From: an uncultured Candidatus Saccharibacteria bacterium | Lineage (GTDB): Bacteria; Patescibacteriota; Minisyncoccia; Phycocordibacterales; UBA2100 | DNA length: 64,000 nucleotides | NCBI GenBank assembly: GCA_964350885.1 | Contig: CAYGKV010000001.1 | Span: 4,073 to 68,072, forward strand | Direction: 5' to 3' | Shown here: piece after piece, positions 1-51,350 of the stretch | Layout: every line of letters begins with the position of its first letter | Numbering within the stretch: position 1 is the first letter of the stretch | Made by a program: the position numbers and the translations under genes | Notes under the pieces: model-generated | Database searches by the model: none | What the model saw: the letters and a program-made list of their open reading frames with translations, nothing else | Told to the model about the DNA's origin: nothing

Positions 1-8
1 CCGCCGCG

Positions 9-242
9 ATGATCGCGATGTGTCTCGTCTCTCCGATTGTACTCGGAAGTGTTGCGCATCGGTGGATGTTTAAGACGGCGCACTACGAAGTATCGTGGAA
101 GACGATCCTTCTTGGAGTTGCGCTGTACTTTGCGCTCGGCATGATCCCTTTCGCCGGAGATATCGCACAGTTCTTACTCATGCTTCTCGTACTAGGAGCC
201 GCACTGAAAATCAAAAAAGATGCAATCAAGGAGTGGCGGTAG
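9..242 (+). CDS. small hydrophobic membrane protein (possibly N-terminally truncated by window edge)
   Basis: ORF in frame with window start; two predicted TM helices (ILLGVALYFALGMIPFAG, FLLMLLVLGAAL); no recognisable family. Confidence 0.3.
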   Translation: MIAMCLVSPIVLGSVAHRWMFKTAHYEVSWKTILLGVALYFALGMIPFAGDIAQFLLMLLVLGAALKIKKDAIKEWR

Positions 243-1218: not shown

Positions 1219-1413
1219 CCCAACTCCGAGTAAATTCTGTATCATCGGGCCCGTCCTTTTTCCGGTCGTCTACTTTCTTCGGAGGGATGGGCGAGGATGG
1301 GGATCTTTTTGCCGCTTTTCGCGCTTTCTCGTTTTCGAGCCACTCCTCATGCTCCATGTTTCGCATAGTATATATTGTATCGCAGCTTTTGCCTCTTGTG
1401 CTAGCATGGGCCA

Positions 1414-2388
1414 ATGCTAGTAGATGAAATAACAATTGAGCTCCACGCAGGAGATGGTGGCAAGGGTGCCGTCGCTTTCCAGAAGGTCCGGCTTGCCCGC
1501 GGTCCTACGGGGGGAGATGGGGGCAATGGTGGCAGCATCTATTTTGAAGGCGTCTCCAATCCGAGCGCACTCTCGGTGTTTGCTCATAAAAAGATAATTC
1601 AGGCGGAAAATGGCAGAGACGGTCGCGGGCAGTTTCTCGACGGCAGAGGAGGCGCCGATCTTATACTGAAGATTCCTATTGGCACGCGCATACACAATGT
1701 CAGTACTGGATATGTGCAAGAGATGGACGAGGTGGGACAGCGCATCTTGGCGGCAGGAGCGGGGATCGGAGGACGGGGGAATTTCAAATTCCGTTCATCA
1801 ACCAACACGAGCCCGATGGAGGCTGAGCCCGGATTAAAGGGCGATACATGCGCCTATAGACTTGAGCTCCGCTTGATTGCTGATGTCGGATTTGTCGGTT
1901 TGCCAAATGCGGGGAAGTCGAGTCTTTTGAATGAATTGACTGCAGCAAAGAGTCGCGTCGCGGGATACGCATTCACGACACTCGAACCTCACCTCGGCGC
2001 GTACTACGAGATCATTCTTGCCGATATCCCAGGACTTATCGAAGGGGCTTCGGAAGGTAAAGGGCTCGGTGTCAAATTTCTCAAGCATATCGAGCGCACG
2101 AAAGTTCTATTTCATCTCATTTCCGCAGAATCCGACGATGTGGCGAAAGATTATGAAGTTATTCGAAACGAGCTGGAGAGCTACAATCCGATGCTTACCA
2201 AGAAAATTGAATATGTGTTTCTCACAAAAACCGACGCTGTCACACCGGAGGAAATAAAGAAGAAGTTACAAGCACTCAAGAAAAAGAAATTAAAACCAAT
2301 CCCCATCTCAATTCTCGATGAAAAGAGCCTCATGGAAGTAAAAAAGATACTCAATAAGATAAAATCCGCGAAACTGGGAAAAGCATAA
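1414..2388 (+). CDS. obg: GTPase Obg/CgtA
   Basis: Obg-fold glycine-rich N-terminus (GDGGKGAVAF, GGDGGNGGSIYF, GRDGRGQF); G domain motifs GLPNAGKSSL, DIPGLIEGA, TKTD. Confidence 0.92.
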   Translation: MLVDEITIELHAGDGGKGAVAFQKVRLARGPTGGDGGNGGSIYFEGVSNPSALSVFAHKKIIQAENGRDGRGQFLDGRGGADLILKIPIGTRIHNVSTGYVQEMDEVGQRILAAGAGIGGRGNFKFRSSTNTSPMEAEPGLKGDTCAYRLELRLIADVGFVGLPNAGKSSLLNELTAAKSRVAGYAFTTLEPHLGAYYEIILADIPGLIEGASEGKGLGVKFLKHIERTKVLFHLISAESDDVAKDYEVIRNELESYNPMLTKKIEYVFLTKTDAVTPEEIKKKLQALKKKKLKPIPISILDEKSLMEVKKILNKIKSAKLGKA

Positions 2389-3116: not shown

Positions 3117-4282
3117 CGGTTGATGTGTAGCACATCGCCGATGAGATAGAGGTTAGAGATTTTGAGACTACGCATAGTGCGCGTATCTACTTCCGTGAGC
3201 GGCACGCCGCCGTCGGAGACGATGGCGCGATCGAAGCCCATCAATCCTTCAATCGTCGCTGGAGCTGACTTAAGAAGGTGAACGAAGCGTTTGCGATCTT
3301 CTTTGGTGAGGCTATGGGCTTTGAGCGAAGGGTTTGGCAAGTTCAGTAGTGAGGTATACGCGCGACTCATGCCGGCCGGTACAATTTCGTCGACAACATT
3401 TTTGAAATCCTTATTCTTACTCGCTTCAATGGCGGCGAGGACGCGCTTTTCGAGCACAGCAAAATCGGTGTCGGGAAATGCGTCGATGGCGCAAGTGACG
3501 GTACCGCCCGATAGAAGATCGTGTACCTGATGAGCGCAGTTCAATATGAGAGGGCCGGAGAGCCCAAAGTGAGTAAAAAGGAGCCGCCCTTTTCTTGCAA
3601 ACGCTCGTTTGCCGTCGACGAAGAAAACAATCTTCATATCAGGCAACGTAATGCCAGCGAGTTTTTTTACCCATGCATCATCTACGCGAAGCGGGACAAG
3701 GGTCGGAGTCGATGGGATTACAGTGTGACCAAGGGCGGGGAGCCAATTGAATCCGTCGCCCGTCGAGCCCGTCTCGGGATGCGATGCGCCGCCTGTTGCG
3801 AGTACAAACGACTCAGCAGTAAACATCCCCTTAGTGCTCACGACATCAGTAATACGGCCGTCTGTAGCATTGAGTTTTTCCACAGTCACGCCCGTCAATA
3901 CCTCGACGCCATGCTCGGCAAGATAGGTCTTGAGCGTTTTGGTAACGTCGGTCGCTTTCTGTGTAACAGGGAATGCGCGGTTTCGTGCTTCGATGACGAG
4001 AGGCAATCCGCGTGAAGCGAAAAAATCAAAGGTGCTCTGCACGCCAAATTGGGAGAAAGGGGAGTAGAGAAATTGTTCTGCGGCGCCGTAATTTTTCAAG
4101 AGCGCACGCACATCTAATTCCGCGTTTGTGATATTGCACCTGCCTCCGCCGGTCGTATCGAGCTTTTTCCCAAGCTTTGCGTTTTTTTCGATAAGTAAGA
4201 CCGATTTACCGCGCTCGGCTGCTATACCCGCAGCAAACATGCCCGCGGCCCCGCCGCCGATCACAATGACATCGTACTTCAT
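3050..4282 (-). CDS. NAD(P)/FAD-dependent oxidoreductase, HI0933/BaiN-like flavoprotein
   Basis: MKYDVIVIGGGAAGMFAAGIAAERGKSVLLIEKNAKLGKKL…GGGRCN Rossmann dinucleotide fold; chosen start is the internal Met (ORF track extends to 4456). Confidence 0.8.
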   Translation of the reverse strand: MKYDVIVIGGGAAGMFAAGIAAERGKSVLLIEKNAKLGKKLDTTGGGRCNITNAELDVRALLKNYGAAEQFLYSPFSQFGVQSTFDFFASRGLPLVIEARNRAFPVTQKATDVTKTLKTYLAEHGVEVLTGVTVEKLNATDGRITDVVSTKGMFTAESFVLATGGASHPETGSTGDGFNWLPALGHTVIPSTPTLVPLRVDDAWVKKLAGITLPDMKIVFFVDGKRAFARKGRLLFTHFGLSGPLILNCAHQVHDLLSGGTVTCAIDAFPDTDFAVLEKRVLAAIEASKNKDFKNVVDEIVPAGMSRAYTSLLNLPNPSLKAHSLTKEDRKRFVHLLKSAPATIEGLMGFDRAIVSDGGVPLTEVDTRTMRSLKISNLYLIGDVLHINRPSGGYSLQLCWSSGFVAGSSV

Positions 4283-5605: not shown

Positions 5606-8284
5606 ATGGAGGGCGTGACGTATTGGCATACACGATCAGTGCCCTTGGTACTCGACGAGCTCCGTACAAGCGAGCGCGGCCTCACAAGCGCTGAAGCAGC
5701 GAGACGTCTTCTTGAGTGGGGGAGAAATGTGTTGCCTGAAAAGAAACCTGACAGCACGATTCAGATTTTCTTTCGCCAGTTTCGTAGCCCCCTTATCTAC
5801 ATTCTTTTGGCGGCTGCGGCGGTTGTTTTCATCATGGGTGAGTACGTTGATGGCGCGATCATCCTCGCAATTTTGATTTTCAATGCCATCGTGGGGACGA
5901 TTCAGGAAGGGAGAGCGCAAAACACTCTCCGCGCTCTCCGACATCTCGTCGAGACGAAGGCAATCGTGGTGCGAGACGAGAAAGAGCTCATCATTCCCGA
6001 CGCTGAGGTGGTGGTTGGCGATATTCTTATGTTGGTCGAAGGAGCGAAAATCGCGGCGGACGCGCGGCTTATTGTTGCGAGGAGTCTTCGCAGCGACGAA
6101 TCCACCCTGACCGGGGAGTCCGTTCCTGTCGATAAACTTCACGATGTTGTTCTTGCGAAAGACAAAGCGACAGCCGAACAGATCAATATGATTTTCAAGG
6201 GTACAAATATTGTGGCGGGTAGCGGAAGGGCGGTTGTGGTCGCGACCGGAGTGAAGACCGCGATCGGGAAGATTGCACAGGCGCTCTCTTCGATTGAATC
6301 TGAAGTCCCCCTTAAATCGAGCATCGAGCATCTCTCGCGAGCGATCATCGTTATCGTGCTTTTCATTGGATCAGCTATTTTTGTACTGGGAATTATCGAA
6401 GGGTACTCAATGCGTACGATGTTTTCTACCGTAGTATCGCTTGCCGTTTCTATCATTCCGGAAGGGTTACCCATCGTCATGACCCTCATACTCGCGACGG
6501 GTGTATGGCGCATGTCTAAGCGCAACGCGCTTGTGAAAGAGCTTCAGGCGGTCGAAGCTTTGGGACAGGCAAATGTAATCGCCGTCGACAAGACGGGCAC
6601 CATCACACGCAACGAGCTTGTCGTCCAGGAGGTGTGGGTCGATGGGCAGCTCTTTCACATCGACGGGGTAGGGTATGAACCGAAAGGAGTAGTGCAACTG
6701 AATGATGCGGAGATTGATCCTGCGGAGAGTCCAGCGCTCCTCTATGCAGGCAAGTGCGCTGCATTTTCAGCAAGCGGACGAACGCTCTATTCAGAAGAGG
6801 AAGCTCGCTGGCGTGTTTTGGGAGATCCGACAGAAGCGGCACTGTTTGTCTTCGGTCAAAAGATTGGTTTCCATAAAGATACTCTTGAGCACACGTCGCC
6901 TCTTCTCGGAGAGATTCCGTTCGATTACCGATTGAAATACCACGGCACGCTCCATAACCACGAGGGGAAGAAGTTTCTCACGGTTGTCGGCGCTCCAGAG
7001 GAGATACTGGGACTTTCTAGCACGATATGGCACGAAGGTGCCCACCATCCGCTTGATCAGGGGAGTCGAGAAAGAATCGAGAAGATAGTCGAAGGCATGT
7101 CGTCGAAAGGCTTGCGCGTCATCGCGTTTGCAGTCGATGATCGTTCTCCGATATCGGATCTCAGGCCGGAGCATATTCGAGGCTTACAATTCATCGGTTT
7201 ATACGGAATGAAAGACGCGCTTCGGGAAGAGGTGAAAGATGCGATGTCTCGGGCAGAAGATGCAGGAATCCGCGTGGTCATGATCACGGGCGATCACGTG
7301 CTCACTGCGCGCGCTATTGCAAAGGAAGCGGGGATCTATCATGCCGGCGATCATGTACTCACGGGGCATGAGATAGATGGGCTCTCCGAAGAGGATCTGG
7401 CGCTCCGGCTTGCGAAGACATCGGTATTTGCACGCGTTACTCCCGAACATAAATTGCAAATCATCAACGCCTACAAGCGGCGTGGAGAAATCGTCGCCAT
7501 GACTGGAGATGGAGTAAACGACGCTCCCTCGCTCGCCGCCGCGGACTTGGGTGTCTCTATGGGTCGGATGGGTACAGAAGTTGCCAAGGAAGCTTCCGAC
7601 ATCATTTTGCTCGACGATAATTTTGGGAGCATTGTCTCTGCCGTAGAAGAAGGACGGAGCATTTACCAATCCATTCGAAAAGTCATCCTCTATCTTTTCT
7701 CGACGAGCGCTGGAGAGACACTCACTCTAATCGGGGCGTTGCTGCTCGGATTACCCCTACCACTTCTTGCTGCGCAGATTATTTGGCTCAACTTTGTGAC
7801 GGACGGATTTTTGGATGTTGCGCTTGCTATGGAGCCGAAAGAGCCAGGGCTCTTGAAAAGAGCGTTTGCGCGGCCTAAGAGATATCTCGTAGATTGGCGA
7901 ATGGGCAGGAGGATTGCCTTGGTGTCGGTCGTCATGATGTGCGGCACACTCTATTTGTTCAAAGACTATGTCGGTGTTGACATGACGAAAGCGTGGACGA
8001 TCTCACTCACCACACTTGCGGTATTTCAGTGGTTTAATGCATGGAACTGTCGATCAGATACGAAGTCAATATTTCAAATGAATCCTTTTTCAAACATGTA
8101 TCTCATTGGTGCCACCGCGATTGTCATCGTGCTGCAATTTTTGGCACTCCACACACCATTTTTGCAATCGATTCTCCACACGACTCCGCTTTCATGGAAT
8201 GAGTGGGTGATGATACTTGTGATCGCTTCGTCTATTATCGTTGCAGAGGAGGTGCGCAAATCATTCGCGCGTTTTCGAGCGTAA
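5606..8284 (+). CDS. cation-transporting P-type ATPase (P2-type, Ca2+/Mg2+-like)
   Basis: TGES, phosphorylation motif DKTGTIT, hinge TGDGVNDAPSLAAADLGVSMG, 10 TM organisation; start chosen at MEGVTYWH. Confidence 0.88.
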   Translation: MEGVTYWHTRSVPLVLDELRTSERGLTSAEAARRLLEWGRNVLPEKKPDSTIQIFFRQFRSPLIYILLAAAAVVFIMGEYVDGAIILAILIFNAIVGTIQEGRAQNTLRALRHLVETKAIVVRDEKELIIPDAEVVVGDILMLVEGAKIAADARLIVARSLRSDESTLTGESVPVDKLHDVVLAKDKATAEQINMIFKGTNIVAGSGRAVVVATGVKTAIGKIAQALSSIESEVPLKSSIEHLSRAIIVIVLFIGSAIFVLGIIEGYSMRTMFSTVVSLAVSIIPEGLPIVMTLILATGVWRMSKRNALVKELQAVEALGQANVIAVDKTGTITRNELVVQEVWVDGQLFHIDGVGYEPKGVVQLNDAEIDPAESPALLYAGKCAAFSASGRTLYSEEEARWRVLGDPTEAALFVFGQKIGFHKDTLEHTSPLLGEIPFDYRLKYHGTLHNHEGKKFLTVVGAPEEILGLSSTIWHEGAHHPLDQGSRERIEKIVEGMSSKGLRVIAFAVDDRSPISDLRPEHIRGLQFIGLYGMKDALREEVKDAMSRAEDAGIRVVMITGDHVLTARAIAKEAGIYHAGDHVLTGHEIDGLSEEDLALRLAKTSVFARVTPEHKLQIINAYKRRGEIVAMTGDGVNDAPSLAAADLGVSMGRMGTEVAKEASDIILLDDNFGSIVSAVEEGRSIYQSIRKVILYLFSTSAGETLTLIGALLLGLPLPLLAAQIIWLNFVTDGFLDVALAMEPKEPGLLKRAFARPKRYLVDWRMGRRIALVSVVMMCGTLYLFKDYVGVDMTKAWTISLTTLAVFQWFNAWNCRSDTKSIFQMNPFSNMYLIGATAIVIVLQFLALHTPFLQSILHTTPLSWNEWVMILVIASSIIVAEEVRKSFARFRA

Positions 8285-46258: not shown

Positions 46259-47473
46259 ATGACTCGAGAAGAATTGCGGAAATTTACACTGCCGGATCAT
46301 CCTGGAGTTTATTTTTTCCGCGACACGAAGAAGAGGATTCTCTACATCGGTAAAGCCACCTCATTGCGCGATCGCGTGCGGAGTTATTTTTCTTCGGATC
46401 TCGGAGCAGGAAGAGGTGAGAGGGTTGTCGCCATGGTTGCCGAGGCCGCATCGATCTCGTACCAGAAAACAGATTCTGTGCTCGAAGCGTTGATGCTTGA
46501 AGCAAATTTGATCAAAAAACACCAACCCCCCTACAATGTCGATCAGAAAGACAACAAAAGCTGGAATTACGTCGTCATTACCAAAGAAGATTTCCCGCGA
46601 GTTCTTGTTGTTCGTGGGCGTGAACTCTTCCAAAAATCGGGATTTACGAAATCCCGATATGTATTTGGGCCGTTTCCTCACGGGAAGCAATTGCAAGAAG
46701 CGCTCAAGATCATTCGTAAGATTTTTCCGTATGCGGATGCGTGCGTCGCGGGAGTTGGGAAGCCGTGCTTCAACAGGCAGATTGGGTTGTGTCCCGGTGT
46801 GTGCTCGGGAGAAATCTCGAAAGATAAGTATGCGCGCACGATTCGCAACATCCGCCAGCTGTTCTCGGGTAATTTTAAGGGGCTCAAGAGCCAGCTCGCT
46901 CGGGACATGAAAATGGCAGCAGGTGCCTTGAAATTTGAAGAAGCCGCGCGGATTCGTCATCAAATACGCGCGCTCGAACATATTCGCGATGTATCGCTCA
47001 TAAGGGGAGAGCAGATTTCTGCGGGAGGCGGTGTGCGTATTGAGGCATTTGATGTCGCGCACACATCAGGTAGTGAAACGGTCGCTGCCATGACCGTAGT
47101 ACATGGTGGCGAAACGATGAAGGTGGCATATAGGAAATTTAAAATACAAACAGCGACCAACGATGACGTCGCCGCCCTCGGAGAAGCGCTCACGCGGCGA
47201 CTCAATCATCCCGAGTGGCCCCTGCCGCGCGTGTTTGTGGTGGATGGGGGGAAGGGGCAGCTACGCGCAGCGGAGCGGGTTTTGAAGCAAGCAGGAATCA
47301 TGGTGCCGCTCGTCGGCGTTGTGAAAAGTGAATTTCACAAGCCGGAGCGTTTGATCGGCGACAAACGGATGATCGAAGCATACGAAAAGGATATTTTACT
47401 CGCAAACAGCGAGGCGCATCGATTTGCGATTCAGTGGCATCGGATTCGACGTCGGAAAGCGATGGTACAATAA
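46259..47473 (+). CDS. uvrC: excinuclease ABC subunit C, short form lacking C-terminal (HhH)2
   Basis: GIY-YIG (GVYFFRD…LYIGKA), UVR domain (FEEAARIRHQIRALEHI), RNase H-like endonuclease domain (IEAFDVAHTSG…VVDGGKGQL); only 404 aa. Confidence 0.75.
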   Translation: MTREELRKFTLPDHPGVYFFRDTKKRILYIGKATSLRDRVRSYFSSDLGAGRGERVVAMVAEAASISYQKTDSVLEALMLEANLIKKHQPPYNVDQKDNKSWNYVVITKEDFPRVLVVRGRELFQKSGFTKSRYVFGPFPHGKQLQEALKIIRKIFPYADACVAGVGKPCFNRQIGLCPGVCSGEISKDKYARTIRNIRQLFSGNFKGLKSQLARDMKMAAGALKFEEAARIRHQIRALEHIRDVSLIRGEQISAGGGVRIEAFDVAHTSGSETVAAMTVVHGGETMKVAYRKFKIQTATNDDVAALGEALTRRLNHPEWPLPRVFVVDGGKGQLRAAERVLKQAGIMVPLVGVVKSEFHKPERLIGDKRMIEAYEKDILLANSEAHRFAIQWHRIRRRKAMVQ

Positions 47474-48454: not shown

Positions 48455-49732
48455 TTAATCTCCAGACACTATTAGAAATGGTCCCGAACCTGATCTCGAG
48501 ATAACAATACCATTCTTATCTTTTTGCGTGATGCTAATGCGATACGAAGCTGAAACGGGCACGTTTGAGGGAATTTTTATCTGAATCGAGGGTGTGTTCG
48601 GCTGAAAACTTGTGATGCCATACTCGGTCGAATCATCGTCGGCTTTTATGGAAGCAGAGATCGTACTTACTACCCCTGTGTTGAGATTTGATTCAAGATA
48701 TACATTGAGTGTATCTCCGATAAATGCTGCTTGGGAGCCGCCAACCAATCTCATGAGTTCATATCCTGGTATCTGGCTTTCGGTGTATCCGCGAACGCTA
48801 AGCCGCGAAATAAAAATTGATGGATTTTTGGCATAGTCACATGCGCCATCATACAATTTCACAGCTTTTGCTGACGAGAAGTAACATGAATTGGGGTATG
48901 TCTTTGGAGAGTTTCCACTTCCATCATATCCGCATATCGGCGCACTATCGGTTGGGCAACTCGTAACAGCCGGATCGTTGCCTGGGACGACAATACGAAA
49001 GCCGCGAGTTTCGGCGGAAGCAACGGTTGTTGGTCTCGGGCCTTGGCAAAATCCAAGACATGCGTCTGAAGGCGTATAAACGACCGCCTTAATTGCGAGT
49101 GGACGATTAAAACTCTCTGTCGAACAAAAGCTTAATCCATCAGAGAAACCGGAACAGAGCATTTTTTCTGGTTCGGGGATTTTCCAAGTGTATGAGCCAA
49201 GGTTGGGATTAAGTTGTCCTTTGATTACGATCCCATTGCTTGCCATAAGATACATTGTCGCGTTCTGCGGAATGCCTTGCGCGTTCCACCGTATCGTCAT
49301 CGAGTCGCCGATGCGAAACGTCTCGTCACCGGAAGGATAGTTGAACGATATGGATGCAGCGCCCGGTAGTGCGACTGAGGGCTTTGTGCCGCAGCGCGTC
49401 GCGATTGCGGCACGTGTTTTGGGGCCAATGACACCGTAGCCTGTCGAAACAGCGTTGCCGTATGAGACAATCGAATTTTGCGCCTGCCATTTTTGCACGG
49501 CTGCTTCTGTCATTGGTCCAAAGAATCCAGTTGCCAGGTCGTTTCCCAAGGATTCCTGCGCAATCAGGAATTTCTGAAGGGAGATTACGTCGTTGCCTCG
49601 ACTGCCGCGCGCAAGTGTACGATAGAGATTTGGACAAGAATCCGTCGTTGTTATTGCACTTGCAAGCATAGGAACAAGCAAATTGGAAACCAAAAGAGCA
49701 GCAAGGAGATTTTGCTTTTTCATGTTGTACAT
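48455..49732 (-). CDS. secreted protein with peptidoglycan-binding (PG_binding_1) domain and Cys-containing Kazal-like segment
   Basis: signal peptide MYNMKKQNLLAALLVSNLLVPMLASA; RGSRGNDVISLQKFLIAQESLGNDLATGFFGPMTEAAVQKWQ = PG-binding repeat; CPTDSAPICGYDGSGNSPKTYPNSC resembles Kazal core PxCGxDGxTYxNxC. Confidence 0.6.
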   Translation of the reverse strand: MYNMKKQNLLAALLVSNLLVPMLASAITTTDSCPNLYRTLARGSRGNDVISLQKFLIAQESLGNDLATGFFGPMTEAAVQKWQAQNSIVSYGNAVSTGYGVIGPKTRAAIATRCGTKPSVALPGAASISFNYPSGDETFRIGDSMTIRWNAQGIPQNATMYLMASNGIVIKGQLNPNLGSYTWKIPEPEKMLCSGFSDGLSFCSTESFNRPLAIKAVVYTPSDACLGFCQGPRPTTVASAETRGFRIVVPGNDPAVTSCPTDSAPICGYDGSGNSPKTYPNSCYFSSAKAVKLYDGACDYAKNPSIFISRLSVRGYTESQIPGYELMRLVGGSQAAFIGDTLNVYLESNLNTGVVSTISASIKADDDSTEYGITSFQPNTPSIQIKIPSNVPVSASYRISITQKDKNGIVISRSGSGPFLIVSGD

Positions 49733-49776
49733 TGTCTCATTTGCAACCCCCGTTTTCAACGTCACTACGCTTATTT

Positions 49777-49799
49777 GGTGGATCAGCGGGGGATCGGTC
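49777..49799 (-). other. relic copy of tRNA-Ala 3' end (acceptor/T-arm, ~19/23 identical)
   Basis: ggtggatcagcgggggatcggtc vs tRNA 3' segment tgtggaccagcgggggatcgaac. Confidence 0.4.
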
Positions 49800-49912
49800 A
49801 CGCATAATTCTTTCGCCGTCGCACAAGAATTTCCGCTACCCCGACTCGGCCTCCCCACTGTTGACTCACAAAAAATATTCGCTCGACGCTTCACGTCGAT
49901 CGCATTATTTTG

Positions 49913-49984
49913 TGGACCAGCGGGGGATCGAACCCCGGACCTCCTCATTGCAAATGAGGCATTCTACCACTGAACTACTGGCCC
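49913..49984 (-). tRNA. tRNA-Ala (anticodon UGC)
   Basis: GGGCCAGTAGTTCAGTGGTAGAATGCCTCATTTGCAATGAGGAGGTCCGGGGTTCGATCCCCCGCTGGTCCA: cloverleaf folds, anticodon loop UUUGCAA, G3:U70 Ala identity pair, discriminator A, no encoded CCA. Confidence 0.88.
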
Positions 49985-50035
49985 AAATTTTACTTTCCTT
50001 CGACAGTTCTCTAACTTATTACGCACAGAGCCGGT

Positions 50036-50060
50036 GCTTCTACCACTGAACTACTGGCAC
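50036..50060 (-). other. relic copy of tRNA-Ala 5' half (acceptor + D-arm, ~22/25 identical), not foldable into a full tRNA
   Basis: GTGCCAGTAGTTCAGTGGTAGAAGC on minus strand; downstream sequence lacks anticodon/T arms. Confidence 0.4.
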
Positions 50061-50144
50061 TTCTGCTCTGTTATATCAGAGAAATGACAAACTGGGAATC
50101 ATAGACGATTGGCACGTTGCGTAGGTATCTGGTAATCTGAGCAC

Positions 50145-51350
50145 ATGAAGTCCAATACGGTAAAAGCGCTGACGCTCGATATCAAACAGGATGGATGGGA
50201 GAAAAGTCGTGGATTTGTGATGCGTGAGGTTCCCATGCCCGTTTTGGATGAAAAGAATAATACAGAAGATGCGCTCGCAGTCATTCTGAAGATCAGGTAC
50301 GCCGGCGTGTGCGGTACTGACCGCGGGCTGTGGAATCGCGCCGTTTTTAAAGATTATGTACATGATTCACTTGCGCGGGAGAAGAAGACCACGCGCATCA
50401 TGGGCCATGAGTTTGTGGGGGAAATAATCGAAGTCGGCTCGATGGTTCCGCGTTTGTATAATGATCCGGATGAGAAAAACCGCGTAAAGATACAGGTCGG
50501 CAGCCTTGTCTCGGGAGATTCGCATGTGACCTGCGGCAGATGCTATCAGTGCCGTATTGGAGAACAGCATGTGTGCATCAATGAAGGGATCTTGGGTATC
50601 TCAATGGACGGCATCTTTGCAGAGTATGTGAAGATCCCCGCCAAGAATCTGTGGGCAATCGACGAGAGCCGCATTCGCCCTGAGATTGCCGCTATCCTCG
50701 ATCCGTTTGGGAATGCGGTACACGCGACGACCATCGTCGATTTCCGAGGGCAGCGCGTAGCGGTATTTGGGTGCGGCCCTATCGGTATGTTCGCAATATT
50801 GCTTTTGCGAAGTTTCGGGGCAGTGAAGATTATCGCTGTCGATGTAAACAAAGCGAATCTGGTGATGGCGAAACAACTAGGCGCGCATGAGACTATTCTT
50901 ATTGAAAGCAAGAAGAAACAAAACGAATGGGAACACGATCCCGAAGTCGTCGCCCGCATCATGGAGCTGACGTATGGAAAAGGCGTCGACATCTCAATGG
51001 AAATGGCAGGACCGGCAGCGTCGGTCAACAACTGCATCGAGAGCACTCGTCGGGGCGGACATGTCATTTTGTTTGGCCTCAAAGATGGGGATATCACCAT
51101 TCCGAAGTTTTCCCGTGCCATCGTACGCGGATTGACTTTCCACGGGATTATCGGGCGCAACATTTTCAAGACGTGGCAAATCGCCCAGCGTATGCTCTCC
51201 GACAAAACCAACGGCATTCAAGATGCAATATGGAAGGTAATCCTGAAGGAGGGCAAGGGGACACTCTATGATTTCAAATCTTTTACGCCCGAGAGTTTCG
51301 AAAAGGCCATGAATGAAAACCCTAAGATCGTGTTTAAGATCAATGGGTAA
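50145..51350 (+). CDS. tdh: L-threonine 3-dehydrogenase (Zn-dependent MDR family)
   Basis: GVCGTDRGLW, GHEFVGEI, structural Zn Cys cluster (CGRCYQCRIGEQHVC), ILDPFGNAVHA identical to the TDH motif, operon with kbl. Confidence 0.8.
   Translation: MKSNTVKALTLDIKQDGWEKSRGFVMREVPMPVLDEKNNTEDALAVILKIRYAGVCGTDRGLWNRAVFKDYVHDSLAREKKTTRIMGHEFVGEIIEVGSMVPRLYNDPDEKNRVKIQVGSLVSGDSHVTCGRCYQCRIGEQHVCINEGILGISMDGIFAEYVKIPAKNLWAIDESRIRPEIAAILDPFGNAVHATTIVDFRGQRVAVFGCGPIGMFAILLLRSFGAVKIIAVDVNKANLVMAKQLGAHETILIESKKKQNEWEHDPEVVARIMELTYGKGVDISMEMAGPAASVNNCIESTRRGGHVILFGLKDGDITIPKFSRAIVRGLTFHGIIGRNIFKTWQIAQRMLSDKTNGIQDAIWKVILKEGKGTLYDFKSFTPESFEKAMNENPKIVFKING

Follow-up and report, generated by a model that had tools for sequence, protein, structure and literature searches.

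A tRNA gene that is flanked on both sides by partial copies of itself raises the question of how those copies came about. Such a locus is found in a 64,000-nt stretch of DNA from an uncultured Candidatus Saccharibacteria bacterium (GenBank assembly GCA_964350885.1, contig CAYGKV010000001.1, positions 4,073 to 68,072 of the forward strand), the whole of which is referred to below as the window. The gene in question, for tRNA-Ala(UGC), is situated at 49913-49984 on the minus strand. An earlier note on this DNA interpreted the copies as the scar of an integration event and concluded that no element remained. The analysis presented here indicates that an element does remain: a decayed module of about 90 nt, belonging to a family of structured RNA elements designated X, lies between the tRNA and its 3′ copy. 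The 3′ fragment is the 3′ closing arm (S′) of this decayed copy of X, and X itself is probably, or was formerly, a non-autonomous insertion element.

The tRNA gene was identified by ARAGORN, by Rfam and by inspection of the sequence. ARAGORN reported a single tRNA in the window, tRNA-Ala(tgc) at 49912-49984 (−), and Rfam family RF00005 placed it at 49913-49984 with 70 bits, against a gathering threshold of 29; at the gathering threshold, Rfam found only this tRNA over the whole window. As previously described, the gene has the G3:U70 pair and the anticodon UGC and does not encode CCA, A73 being followed by CAA.

Both partial copies proved to be real. The 3′ copy is longer than was first noted: positions 49771-49796 match 49905-49930 at 24 of 26 nucleotides, a repeat comprising C56-A73 of the tRNA and 7 nt of its trailer. 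Within it, 49776-49795 (−), which reads GATCCCCCGCTGATCCACCA, corresponds by sequence comparison to R57-A73 (16/17 identical) followed by an encoded CCA, which is absent from the intact gene. At 49748-49775 (−) the direct repeat could be followed further, in diverged form, into duplicated trailer sequence; over this extension of about 30 nt, 22 of 34 positions are identical to the intact trailer, a score equalled by 31 of 2000 shuffled sequences. The 5′ copy is exact over 21 of 21 nucleotides (50038-50058 against 49962-49982, tRNA nt 3-23) and, according to ARAGORN and Rfam, cannot form a complete tRNA. A 22-mer search of the window with the 3′ repeat returned its two sites only, and neither fragment had a further match with three or fewer mismatches, in the window or in shuffled sequences. 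Chance similarity, which the earlier note had considered, is thereby dismissed, as no shuffle reproduced the fragments. The entire arrangement recurs, base for base, in three independent assemblies, one from ENA and two from Logan (L043, L044 and L045), and is thus not an assembly artefact.

The spacer that separates the tRNA from its 3′ copy has counterparts elsewhere. A conserved sequence, X, comes after tRNA-Ala in metagenomic loci L004, L009, L019 (with two copies) and L040, and it aligns to the window spacer as well. A search pattern of 30 nt taken from its 3′ hairpin, TGWGYGACGGCGAR-N10-GTGACC, matched at least 120 metagenome contigs and none of the viral contigs of IMG/VR. A covariance model of the 90-nt core, built in this analysis and designated R1, yielded 137 matches in 100 loci, and 63 non-identical cores were aligned to obtain a consensus and a structure. 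The consensus is GAAAG-N-CGG-AGC...P2...CGAG-N′-CGGGGUC...P3...GUGACC, with GAGCGACGGCGA at the apex of P3. The core is a three-way junction, GAAAG-P1-P2-P1′-GG-P3-GUGACC, in which the GAGCGACGGCGA apical module is invariant.

It is apparent that this core is under strong structural (purifying) selection. Standard pairs occupied 95.9% of the pair cells, compared with 72% after shuffling and 35-51% when the pairing partners were slid, and 433 cells had changes on both sides of the pair. The covariation score was 0.676, against 0.216 for shuffled alignments, none of 500 of which reached the observed value. The single N:N′ pair alone was represented by GC 24 times, CG 20 times, AU 17 times and UA twice. 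In the core helices, G:U combinations outnumbered A:C combinations by 66 to 16, which assigns the structure to the tRNA-sense strand. Rfam 15 gave no match to X at E≤1 in eight intact-X loci, nor at E≤10 in window positions 49650-50150, and in neither set was there a match to its ribozyme or intron families. Weak matches to sX4 and to a permuted tmRNA (12.9 bits) were discounted as noise. Full-text literature searches found no description of an X-like element; the closest reports concern group I introns in Patescibacteria tRNA genes (PMC13011429) and fragments of tRNA genes produced by integration (PMC9897764). X is an abundant, structured, tRNA-linked element without an Rfam family, and is apparently undescribed.

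Variants of the core were also observed. A subfamily of 66 nt, X2, carries an invariant GCGACGGCG module on P2 and an AGCA-type tetraloop on P3, the reverse of the order in X1; because the module and the tetraloop have been exchanged between the two helices, the architecture can be described as modular. Copies of X2 are situated at L137 1084-1149, L152 2695-2760, L110 2147-2212, L073 225-290 and L094 430-495. Cores split by extra hairpin domains were found in L079 (about 5669-5900, −), L047 (9759-9856), L053 (7396-7511) and L069 (6998-7175), and in L079 one X-like core is apparently nested within another.

When the window was scanned with R1, the sole credible match was at 49796-49855 (−), with 49.8 bits and an E value of about 1e-9; intact copies of X score 80-106 bits under the same model. 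In the window alignment, 31 model positions, representing helix P2, are replaced by 1 nt. The P3 hairpin with its apical GUGCGACGGCGAA is retained, as are the CGAG-U-CGGGG junction, the terminal GUGACC and the S′ that begins directly after this last motif of the core. The copy lacks helix P2 as well as the 5′ strand of P1, so that the intact three-way junction is not formed, and was accordingly classed as a decayed member of the family. It belongs to the family by its match to R1, by the tRNA situated directly 5′ on the same strand and by an S′ that starts at R57 after GUGACC. The core starts 57 nt beyond A73, and the tRNA is separated from the 3′ copy by about 113 nt. Following the loss of P2 and of the P1 5′ strand, X in this lineage is probably inert.

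The association of X with tRNA genes was examined in the loci recovered from metagenomes. A tRNA is located directly upstream, on the same strand, in 74 of 117 X copies and, conversely, X is found within 300 nt downstream of 81 of the 163 tRNAs in X-bearing loci, that is, of about half. The tRNAs that precede X represent at least 30 anticodons. A census was made of the flanks of 182-188 tRNAs in the fetched loci, with permuted flanks as the control. Downstream of 51 of 182 tRNAs, 12 nt or more of the tRNA's own 3′ end was repeated directly (1-7 in permuted flanks), and 64 of 182 had an inverted copy of 10 nt or more (1-4 in controls). Among the tRNA genes sampled, about one in four to one in three has a 3′ self-copy that belongs to X.

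Intact copies have a regular order: a hairpin, HP0, whose loop is usually CUGC; a segment designated anti-S; the 90-nt core; and S′. In what are termed long-type copies, S′ is a copy of the upstream tRNA and directly follows the GUGACC that ends the core. Its start corresponds to T-loop position R57 in all 28 copies with a recognisable adjacent repeat, its length is 10-43 nt, and it sometimes extends into the private trailer of the tRNA. In 17 of 24 non-redundant long-type loci, S′ differs at no position from nt 57-73 of its own tRNA. Anti-S, which lies 5′ of the core and is usually contiguous over about 9 nt, is a true reverse complement of S′, T-loop nucleotides included. The closing helix that the two can form reaches 6 bp or more in 49 of 81 copies (31% in controls) and 9 bp or more in 27 of 81 (7% in controls). 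Because anti-S and S′ pair, the X core takes the place of the loop in a structure that resembles a T-arm. A kissing interaction between the loops of HP0 and P2, judged by eye, was considered and dropped, as the loops are simple tetraloops (CUGC; ANNA) with no covariation.

In the window, the place of anti-S would be taken by 49853-49873 (−), UUUUGUGAGUCAACAGUGGGG, a putative remnant delineated by local alignment and a minimum free energy (MFE) fold. Its alignment to the reverse complement of the tRNA 3′ end plus trailer has a weak score of 18, which was reached by 68 of 2000 shuffles, and the MFE fold pairs it with S′ (z = −2.46). Its position fits the family architecture, and it is probably a remnant of the inverted complement of the tRNA 3′ end. 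The position of HP0 is occupied by a predicted trailer hairpin at 49883-49899 (−), UCGACG-UGAAG-CGUCGA followed by a T-run; the correspondence with HP0 at other loci is by position, and a simple scan did not call this hairpin a terminator.

Two further features of the long-type copies were evaluated. CCA follows S′ in 8 of the 24 non-redundant loci and the tRNA gene in 4; six loci have it in S′ but not in the gene, and two show the reverse. These counts are suggestive but not significant, and the notion that S′ preserves an original, CCA-bearing 3′ end was not adopted. An acceptor-5′-like strand was detected in 6 of 35 long-type copies, compared with 3% in controls, and a full acceptor/T minihelix mimic was for that reason rejected as a general feature of X.

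Not all copies follow the long-type pattern. In short-type copies (L004, L019b, L062, L081, L089 and others), the last nucleotides of the tRNA and its trailer form a long hairpin with their complement, and about 6 nt are repeated after the core. Some X copies follow protein genes (L106, L090 and L118/L126), which, from their C-terminal translations, we take to be rplL-, rpsI- and topA-like; at L118 the duplicated segment lies within the coding sequence, 114 nt upstream. In L075 (10341-10431, +) and L156 (263-353, +), X adjoins the 5′ end of an opposite-strand tRNA-Lys, and in its hairpin the complement of that 5′ end takes the role of a 3′ end. In L138 (upstream of 4458, −) and L149 (upstream of 2861, +), X comes after a common RNA-like 3′ end, ...GGUACUUAACCCACAAU..., for which Rfam gave no match at the gathering score. 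L060 contains a tmRNA at 944-1339 (+; Rfam, 70.9 bits) and, 66 nt later, an intact X core at 1405-1494 (+), whose anti-S is complementary to the T-arm and the 3′ acceptor strand of the tmRNA.

Where partial copies of a tRNA are found, they are usually the mark of integrated elements, 9-120 kb in size, that have a complete tRNA at one end and a partial one at the other, and a direct repeat running from the T-loop to past the tRNA 3′ end is the classical signature of integration at a tRNA gene (PMC9897764). On that model an integrase-bearing phage, integrative and conjugative element (ICE) or island would have entered the 3′ end of tRNA-Ala, with regeneration of the gene, and would later have been lost, leaving the attR copy behind; the variability among relatives of the region upstream of the tdh gene, which adjoins the tRNA, is in agreement with such a history. 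The integration scar proposed in the earlier note therefore survives in part. The duplicated tRNA 3′ end, the foreign-looking spacer and the start of the repeat in the T-loop are all consistent with it, and the duplication does mark an inserted sequence; what is not upheld is the origin from an integrase, a fixed attP or an island. The 113-nt interval between the repeats is occupied by a sequence that can be recognised as belonging to a 90-nt family of structured RNAs and, unlike the case of an integrated island, neither an integrase nor foreign DNA on the kilobase scale accompanies the 24/26 repeat. As X follows at least 30 tRNA species and tmRNA, each with a copy of its own 3′ end, an element with a fixed attP cannot produce the pattern; the repeats match each tRNA and its private trailer, and so must be made from the target. 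Moreover, the neighbouring genes are housekeeping genes, no integrase family stood out among ORF clusters, judged from their first residues, near approximately 100 X copies, the X pattern is absent from IMG/VR, and the model leaves both the inverted copies and the 5′ fragment unexplained. It is largely refuted, and we regard it as very improbable.

The resemblance of an X locus to the attL/attR sites of tyrosine integrases (phages, ICEs and islands) is nevertheless close, in that a complete and functional tRNA has a partial 3′ copy set apart from it, the repeated segment extends from the T-loop through the 3′ end, and tmRNA is also a target. Repeats of the attL/attR kind are reportedly found at both tRNA and tmRNA genes, and the T-loop is said to be one of the sublocations used by tRNA-targeting integrases. 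X differs from these sites in its gene-less insert of about 100-200 nt, in the lack of an associated integrase and in the inverted copy of the same tRNA segment across the core. Fragments of tRNA genes are routinely read as footprints of phages or islands and are used to delimit islands; in the sampled lineage of the Candidate Phyla Radiation (CPR), such readings would be systematically wrong. A covariance model of X would improve the annotation of CPR genomes and prevent false calls of islands or pseudo-tRNAs.

A further alternative is that X is a host-functional non-coding RNA (ncRNA), a tRNA-like companion co-transcribed with each tRNA, in which case the window copy would be its pseudogene. 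The T-arm look-alike stem, with an acceptor-arm look-alike in some copies, would allow excision or stabilisation by RNase P, RNase Z and the CCA-adding enzyme, and gene conversion or selection would keep S′ identical to the tRNA. The deep covariation, the invariant junction and loop nucleotides in every copy and the location of the structure on the tRNA-sense strand all speak for such a role, as do the exact agreement of S′ with its own tRNA in most long-type loci, the CCA that follows some S′ arms and the excess of acceptor-5′-like strands. Against it, a closing stem needs no set sequence, and yet the 3′ end, trailer or coding segment of the neighbour has been copied; most copies lack the acceptor 5′ strand and so are not true minihelices; X is also found behind protein genes and antisense beside a tRNA 5′ end; nested and tandem copies exist; and X is dispensable at the tRNA-Ala/tdh locus, as detailed below. 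On balance, a host ncRNA appears to be somewhat unlikely.

The insertion-element reading is favoured because the closing helix requires no particular sequence, so that the systematic duplication of adjacent sequence would seem to be a side effect of some mechanism. Copies arranged in tandem or nested in one another, the few sites that lie outside tRNA genes or antisense to them, and direct and inverted flanks that derive from the target, even when this is a non-functional trailer or a segment of coding sequence, are likewise in its favour, as are the presence or absence of X and its three architectures at the orthologous ddl/tRNA-Ala/tdh locus. X would enter stable-RNA genes either at C56|R57 or at the 3′ end; a copying mechanism, for which fold-back synthesis, target-primed synthesis and gene conversion are candidates, would duplicate the target flank in direct and inverted form while keeping the tRNA gene intact; and X would then be transcribed by read-through from the tRNA. 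The more specific proposal, that X is an undescribed RNA element of CPR/Paceibacteria that docks at C56|R57 or the 3′ end of tRNA and tmRNA genes with templated copying of the target, is advanced only tentatively.

A number of observations do, of course, weigh against insertion. The strong purifying selection on every copy of X fits a host ncRNA equally well. The identity of X copies has a median of 0.63 within a contig and 0.64 between genomes, and nearest-neighbour copies share the anticodon of their tRNA in 12 of 70 cases, against 1.5% expected. This within-contig divergence and tracking of the anticodon fit old vertical inheritance, possibly with a host function, and since identity is no higher within contigs than between genomes, a recent burst of transposable elements of the miniature inverted-repeat type (MITEs) was rejected as a model. 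When 427 open reading frames (ORFs) within 3 kb of approximately 100 X copies were clustered and judged from their first residues, no cluster resembling a recombinase, transposase, integrase or reverse transcriptase (RT) recurred among these unannotated clusters, a result that also agrees with a host ncRNA. Among the top clusters, IF-2-like and L19-like sequences come first, and others are presumably rbfA, ftsA and rluD, from their first residues. The core of short-type copies has a terminator-like hairpin in front of it. In the window itself, the anti-S remnant is weak (p about 0.03), alignments of filled with empty sites (the window with L001, and L004 with L025) gave no significant result, and the 5′ fragment has no demonstrated link to X.

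Like the structured intergenic repeats and MITEs of bacteria (REP/BIME, ERIC, Correia and RUP sequences and the PATEs derived from IS200/IS605), X is multi-copy, ORF-less, hairpin-rich and about 100-150 nt long, is situated at the 3′ ends of transcription units and is sometimes tandem or nested. It is distinguished from these by a three-way-junction core with RNA-type covariation, by a strict target (R57 or the tRNA 3′ end) and by copies that are as divergent within a genome as between genomes; it also lacks the fixed terminal inverted repeats and the fixed-length target duplication of MITEs, its flanks of 10-43 nt being derived from the target. With the tRNA-like domain of tmRNA, YrlA, mascRNA and viral tRNA-like structures, X shares a T-arm-like stem, a discriminator base, sometimes a 3′ CCA and, in some copies, an acceptor-like stem, all in a position suited to processing by tRNA enzymes. 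In contrast to these mimics, X imitates the particular tRNA next to it, its T-loop is replaced by a 90-nt domain, most of its copies have no acceptor 5′ strand, and it matches no tRNA-like family in Rfam.

A long terminal repeat (LTR) retroelement has a primer-binding site of 18 nt that is complementary to the 3′ end of a tRNA and is regenerated from the primer tRNA. By analogy, X may be compared with such a site, having a segment complementary to the tRNA 3′ end beside a conserved element, with a boundary in the T-loop; it differs in that anti-S is usually contiguous over only about 9 nt and in that no RT is linked to X. Archaeal T-loop introns and split or permuted tRNAs resemble X in that a tRNA-shaped sequence is interrupted, at a defined position in a loop, by a structured insert, and the Patescibacteria are a lineage known for intron-rich tRNA genes. 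According to PMC13011429, group I introns in Patescibacteria tRNA genes are in the anticodon loop (35/36), and group II introns are reported as absent from the phylum; X, at 56/57, is differently placed. Unlike a tRNA intron, X interrupts only a 3′ stub beside an intact gene, and it is far smaller than a group I intron.

If the more specific proposal of docking with templated copying is correct, the RNA of X may be a new ribozyme, a protein-binding scaffold or the relic of a tRNA-primed retroelement, and X would represent either a new mobility mechanism or a new tRNA-coupled ncRNA system at about half of the tRNA genes of these organisms. The element points to a new route for colonising essential genes without killing them, or else to tRNA-linked RNA biology not known before, in ultra-small symbiotic bacteria (CPR/Patescibacteria).

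The distribution of X among relatives was assessed at the ddl/tRNA-Ala/tdh locus. Relatives identified by tdh are all CPR/Patescibacteria metagenome-assembled genomes, labelled Nomurabacteria, Kaiserbacteria, Parcubacteria or Paceibacterota, and the chromosome that contains the window is Paceibacteria-like (Nomura-/Kaiserbacteria). Ten of the loci inspected have tRNA-Ala(UGC) near tdh, with varying orientation and downstream content; the tRNA of the window is identical to those of L001, L003 and L004. X is present in some relatives and absent from others (L001, L003, L005, L007 and L025), and three architectures were recognised. The closest relative carrying this tRNA is L001 (tdh 93% and tRNA 100% identical), in which X is missing, CCA is encoded and the orientation of the tRNA with respect to tdh is reversed. 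As L001 lacks X beside an identical tRNA, X is dispensable at this locus. L166 and L167 (tdh 89-91% identical) and L168 (84%) were also compared by tdh, but the locus is rearranged in all three, which are consequently uninformative for dating. In L166 (tdh 89% identical), no tRNA adjoins tdh, and a P3-like piece of X (GCGACGGCGAA...GTGAC plus GATTTCTCTACCG) is located at the contig edge, at positions 1-75 (+).

The 5′ fragment requires a separate explanation, since integration at a 3′ end, to which the earlier note had also attributed it, does not account for a 5′ copy. It extends over 50036-50060 (−), a copy of tRNA nt 1-25 in which nt 3-23 are exact; none of 100 shuffles gave a match with three or fewer mismatches. 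Its inclusion in a second, intron-containing or split tRNA, which the earlier note had also considered, is contradicted by ARAGORN and by Rfam (E≤10), both of which give one tRNA in 49650-50150. The fragment falls within a predicted hairpin at 50025-50071 with the inner stem GUGC/GCAC, a fold that is not significant by itself (z = −1.17), and a simple scan found no tRNA promoter overlapping it. A similar, diverged fragment is present in L001, 49 nt upstream of the identical tRNA. Compared with the tRNA's own GGGC...GCCU, the stem reads GUGC...GCAC in the window and GGGU...ACCC in L001; these two compensatory double changes in a 4-bp stem are suggestive of conservation of the stem between the two, in what is a small sample.

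The fragment starts 76 nt ahead of the tRNA, about one tRNA length, as would be expected if the tRNA-Ala region had been duplicated in tandem and had then decayed, with a remnant of the 5′ part surviving upstream and one of the 3′ part downstream; the likeness of the spacer to X would then be incidental. Tandem repeats of a leader plus the tRNA 5′ end exist at other tRNAs. In L056 and L088, perfect or near-perfect units consisting of the leader and the first 13-24 nt of the tRNA lie directly upstream of the intact gene, as two 38-nt units at about 6955-7030 (+) in L056 and as two of about 84 nt upstream of tRNA-Val(gac) at 1071-1145 (−) in L088. No residual tRNA similarity, however, was found from nt ~28 of the 5′ fragment up to the tRNA; the 3′ spacer matches R1 with an E value of about 1e-9, and the 3′ copy starts exactly at the R57 junction of the family. 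As an account of the whole locus, tandem duplication is thus quite improbable; for the 5′ fragment alone, it is a possible origin.

Partial 5′ copies are rare at other tRNAs, being found at 8 of 188 (0-3 in controls), a count that includes a scaffold-gap artefact in L003 and the duplicate assembly of the window, L043. In L003 (about 4127-4249), 23 nt of the tRNA-Ala 5′ end are duplicated, and a stretch of N fills the distance from there to the tRNA; in all likelihood this is a scaffold gap at a repeated tRNA and not a genuine 5′ fragment. Upstream of tRNA-Ser(gga) in L110, at 6718-6783 (−) and in its flanks, a pseudo-5′-half (nt 1-19), an X2-type core and a copy of the anticodon arm were observed, and upstream of tRNA-Ala in L019, at about 5735-5890 (−), there is a pseudo-tRNA-Ala (nt 1-13 and 18-48) with a D-loop insert of about 85 nt. 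From L110 and L019, it is evident that tRNA self-copies with inserts occur on the 5′ side as well.

A third, inverted fragment of the tRNA was detected in the window at 49724-49746 (+). It corresponds to nt 15-37 (D-arm/anticodon-arm, 19/23 identical) and abuts the start codon (49723, −) of the gene for a secreted peptidoglycan-binding protein; its exact 11-mer, CTCATTTGCAA, occurs twice in the window, against 0.07 occurrences expected. One might speculate that it is a relic of a tRNA-Ala on the plus strand, the orientation seen in most relatives. The 5′ fragment, which is common to the window and L001, and the inverted fragment are probably older relics of rearrangement at this tRNA, separate from X.

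The genes around the tRNA are, in order, carB, a short uvrC, ddl, the gene for the secreted peptidoglycan-binding protein (48455-49723, −), tRNA-Ala, tdh (50145-51350, +), kbl and a gene for an RRM protein; ddl, uvrC, carB, tdh and kbl are housekeeping genes. The uvrC-like ORF (46259-47473) is unusually short, with 404 aa. Two riboswitches, unrelated to X, were noted on X-bearing contigs: a fluoride riboswitch in L058 (795-880, +; 46.7 bits) and an AdoCbl-II riboswitch in L098 (6107-6186, −; 38.6 bits).

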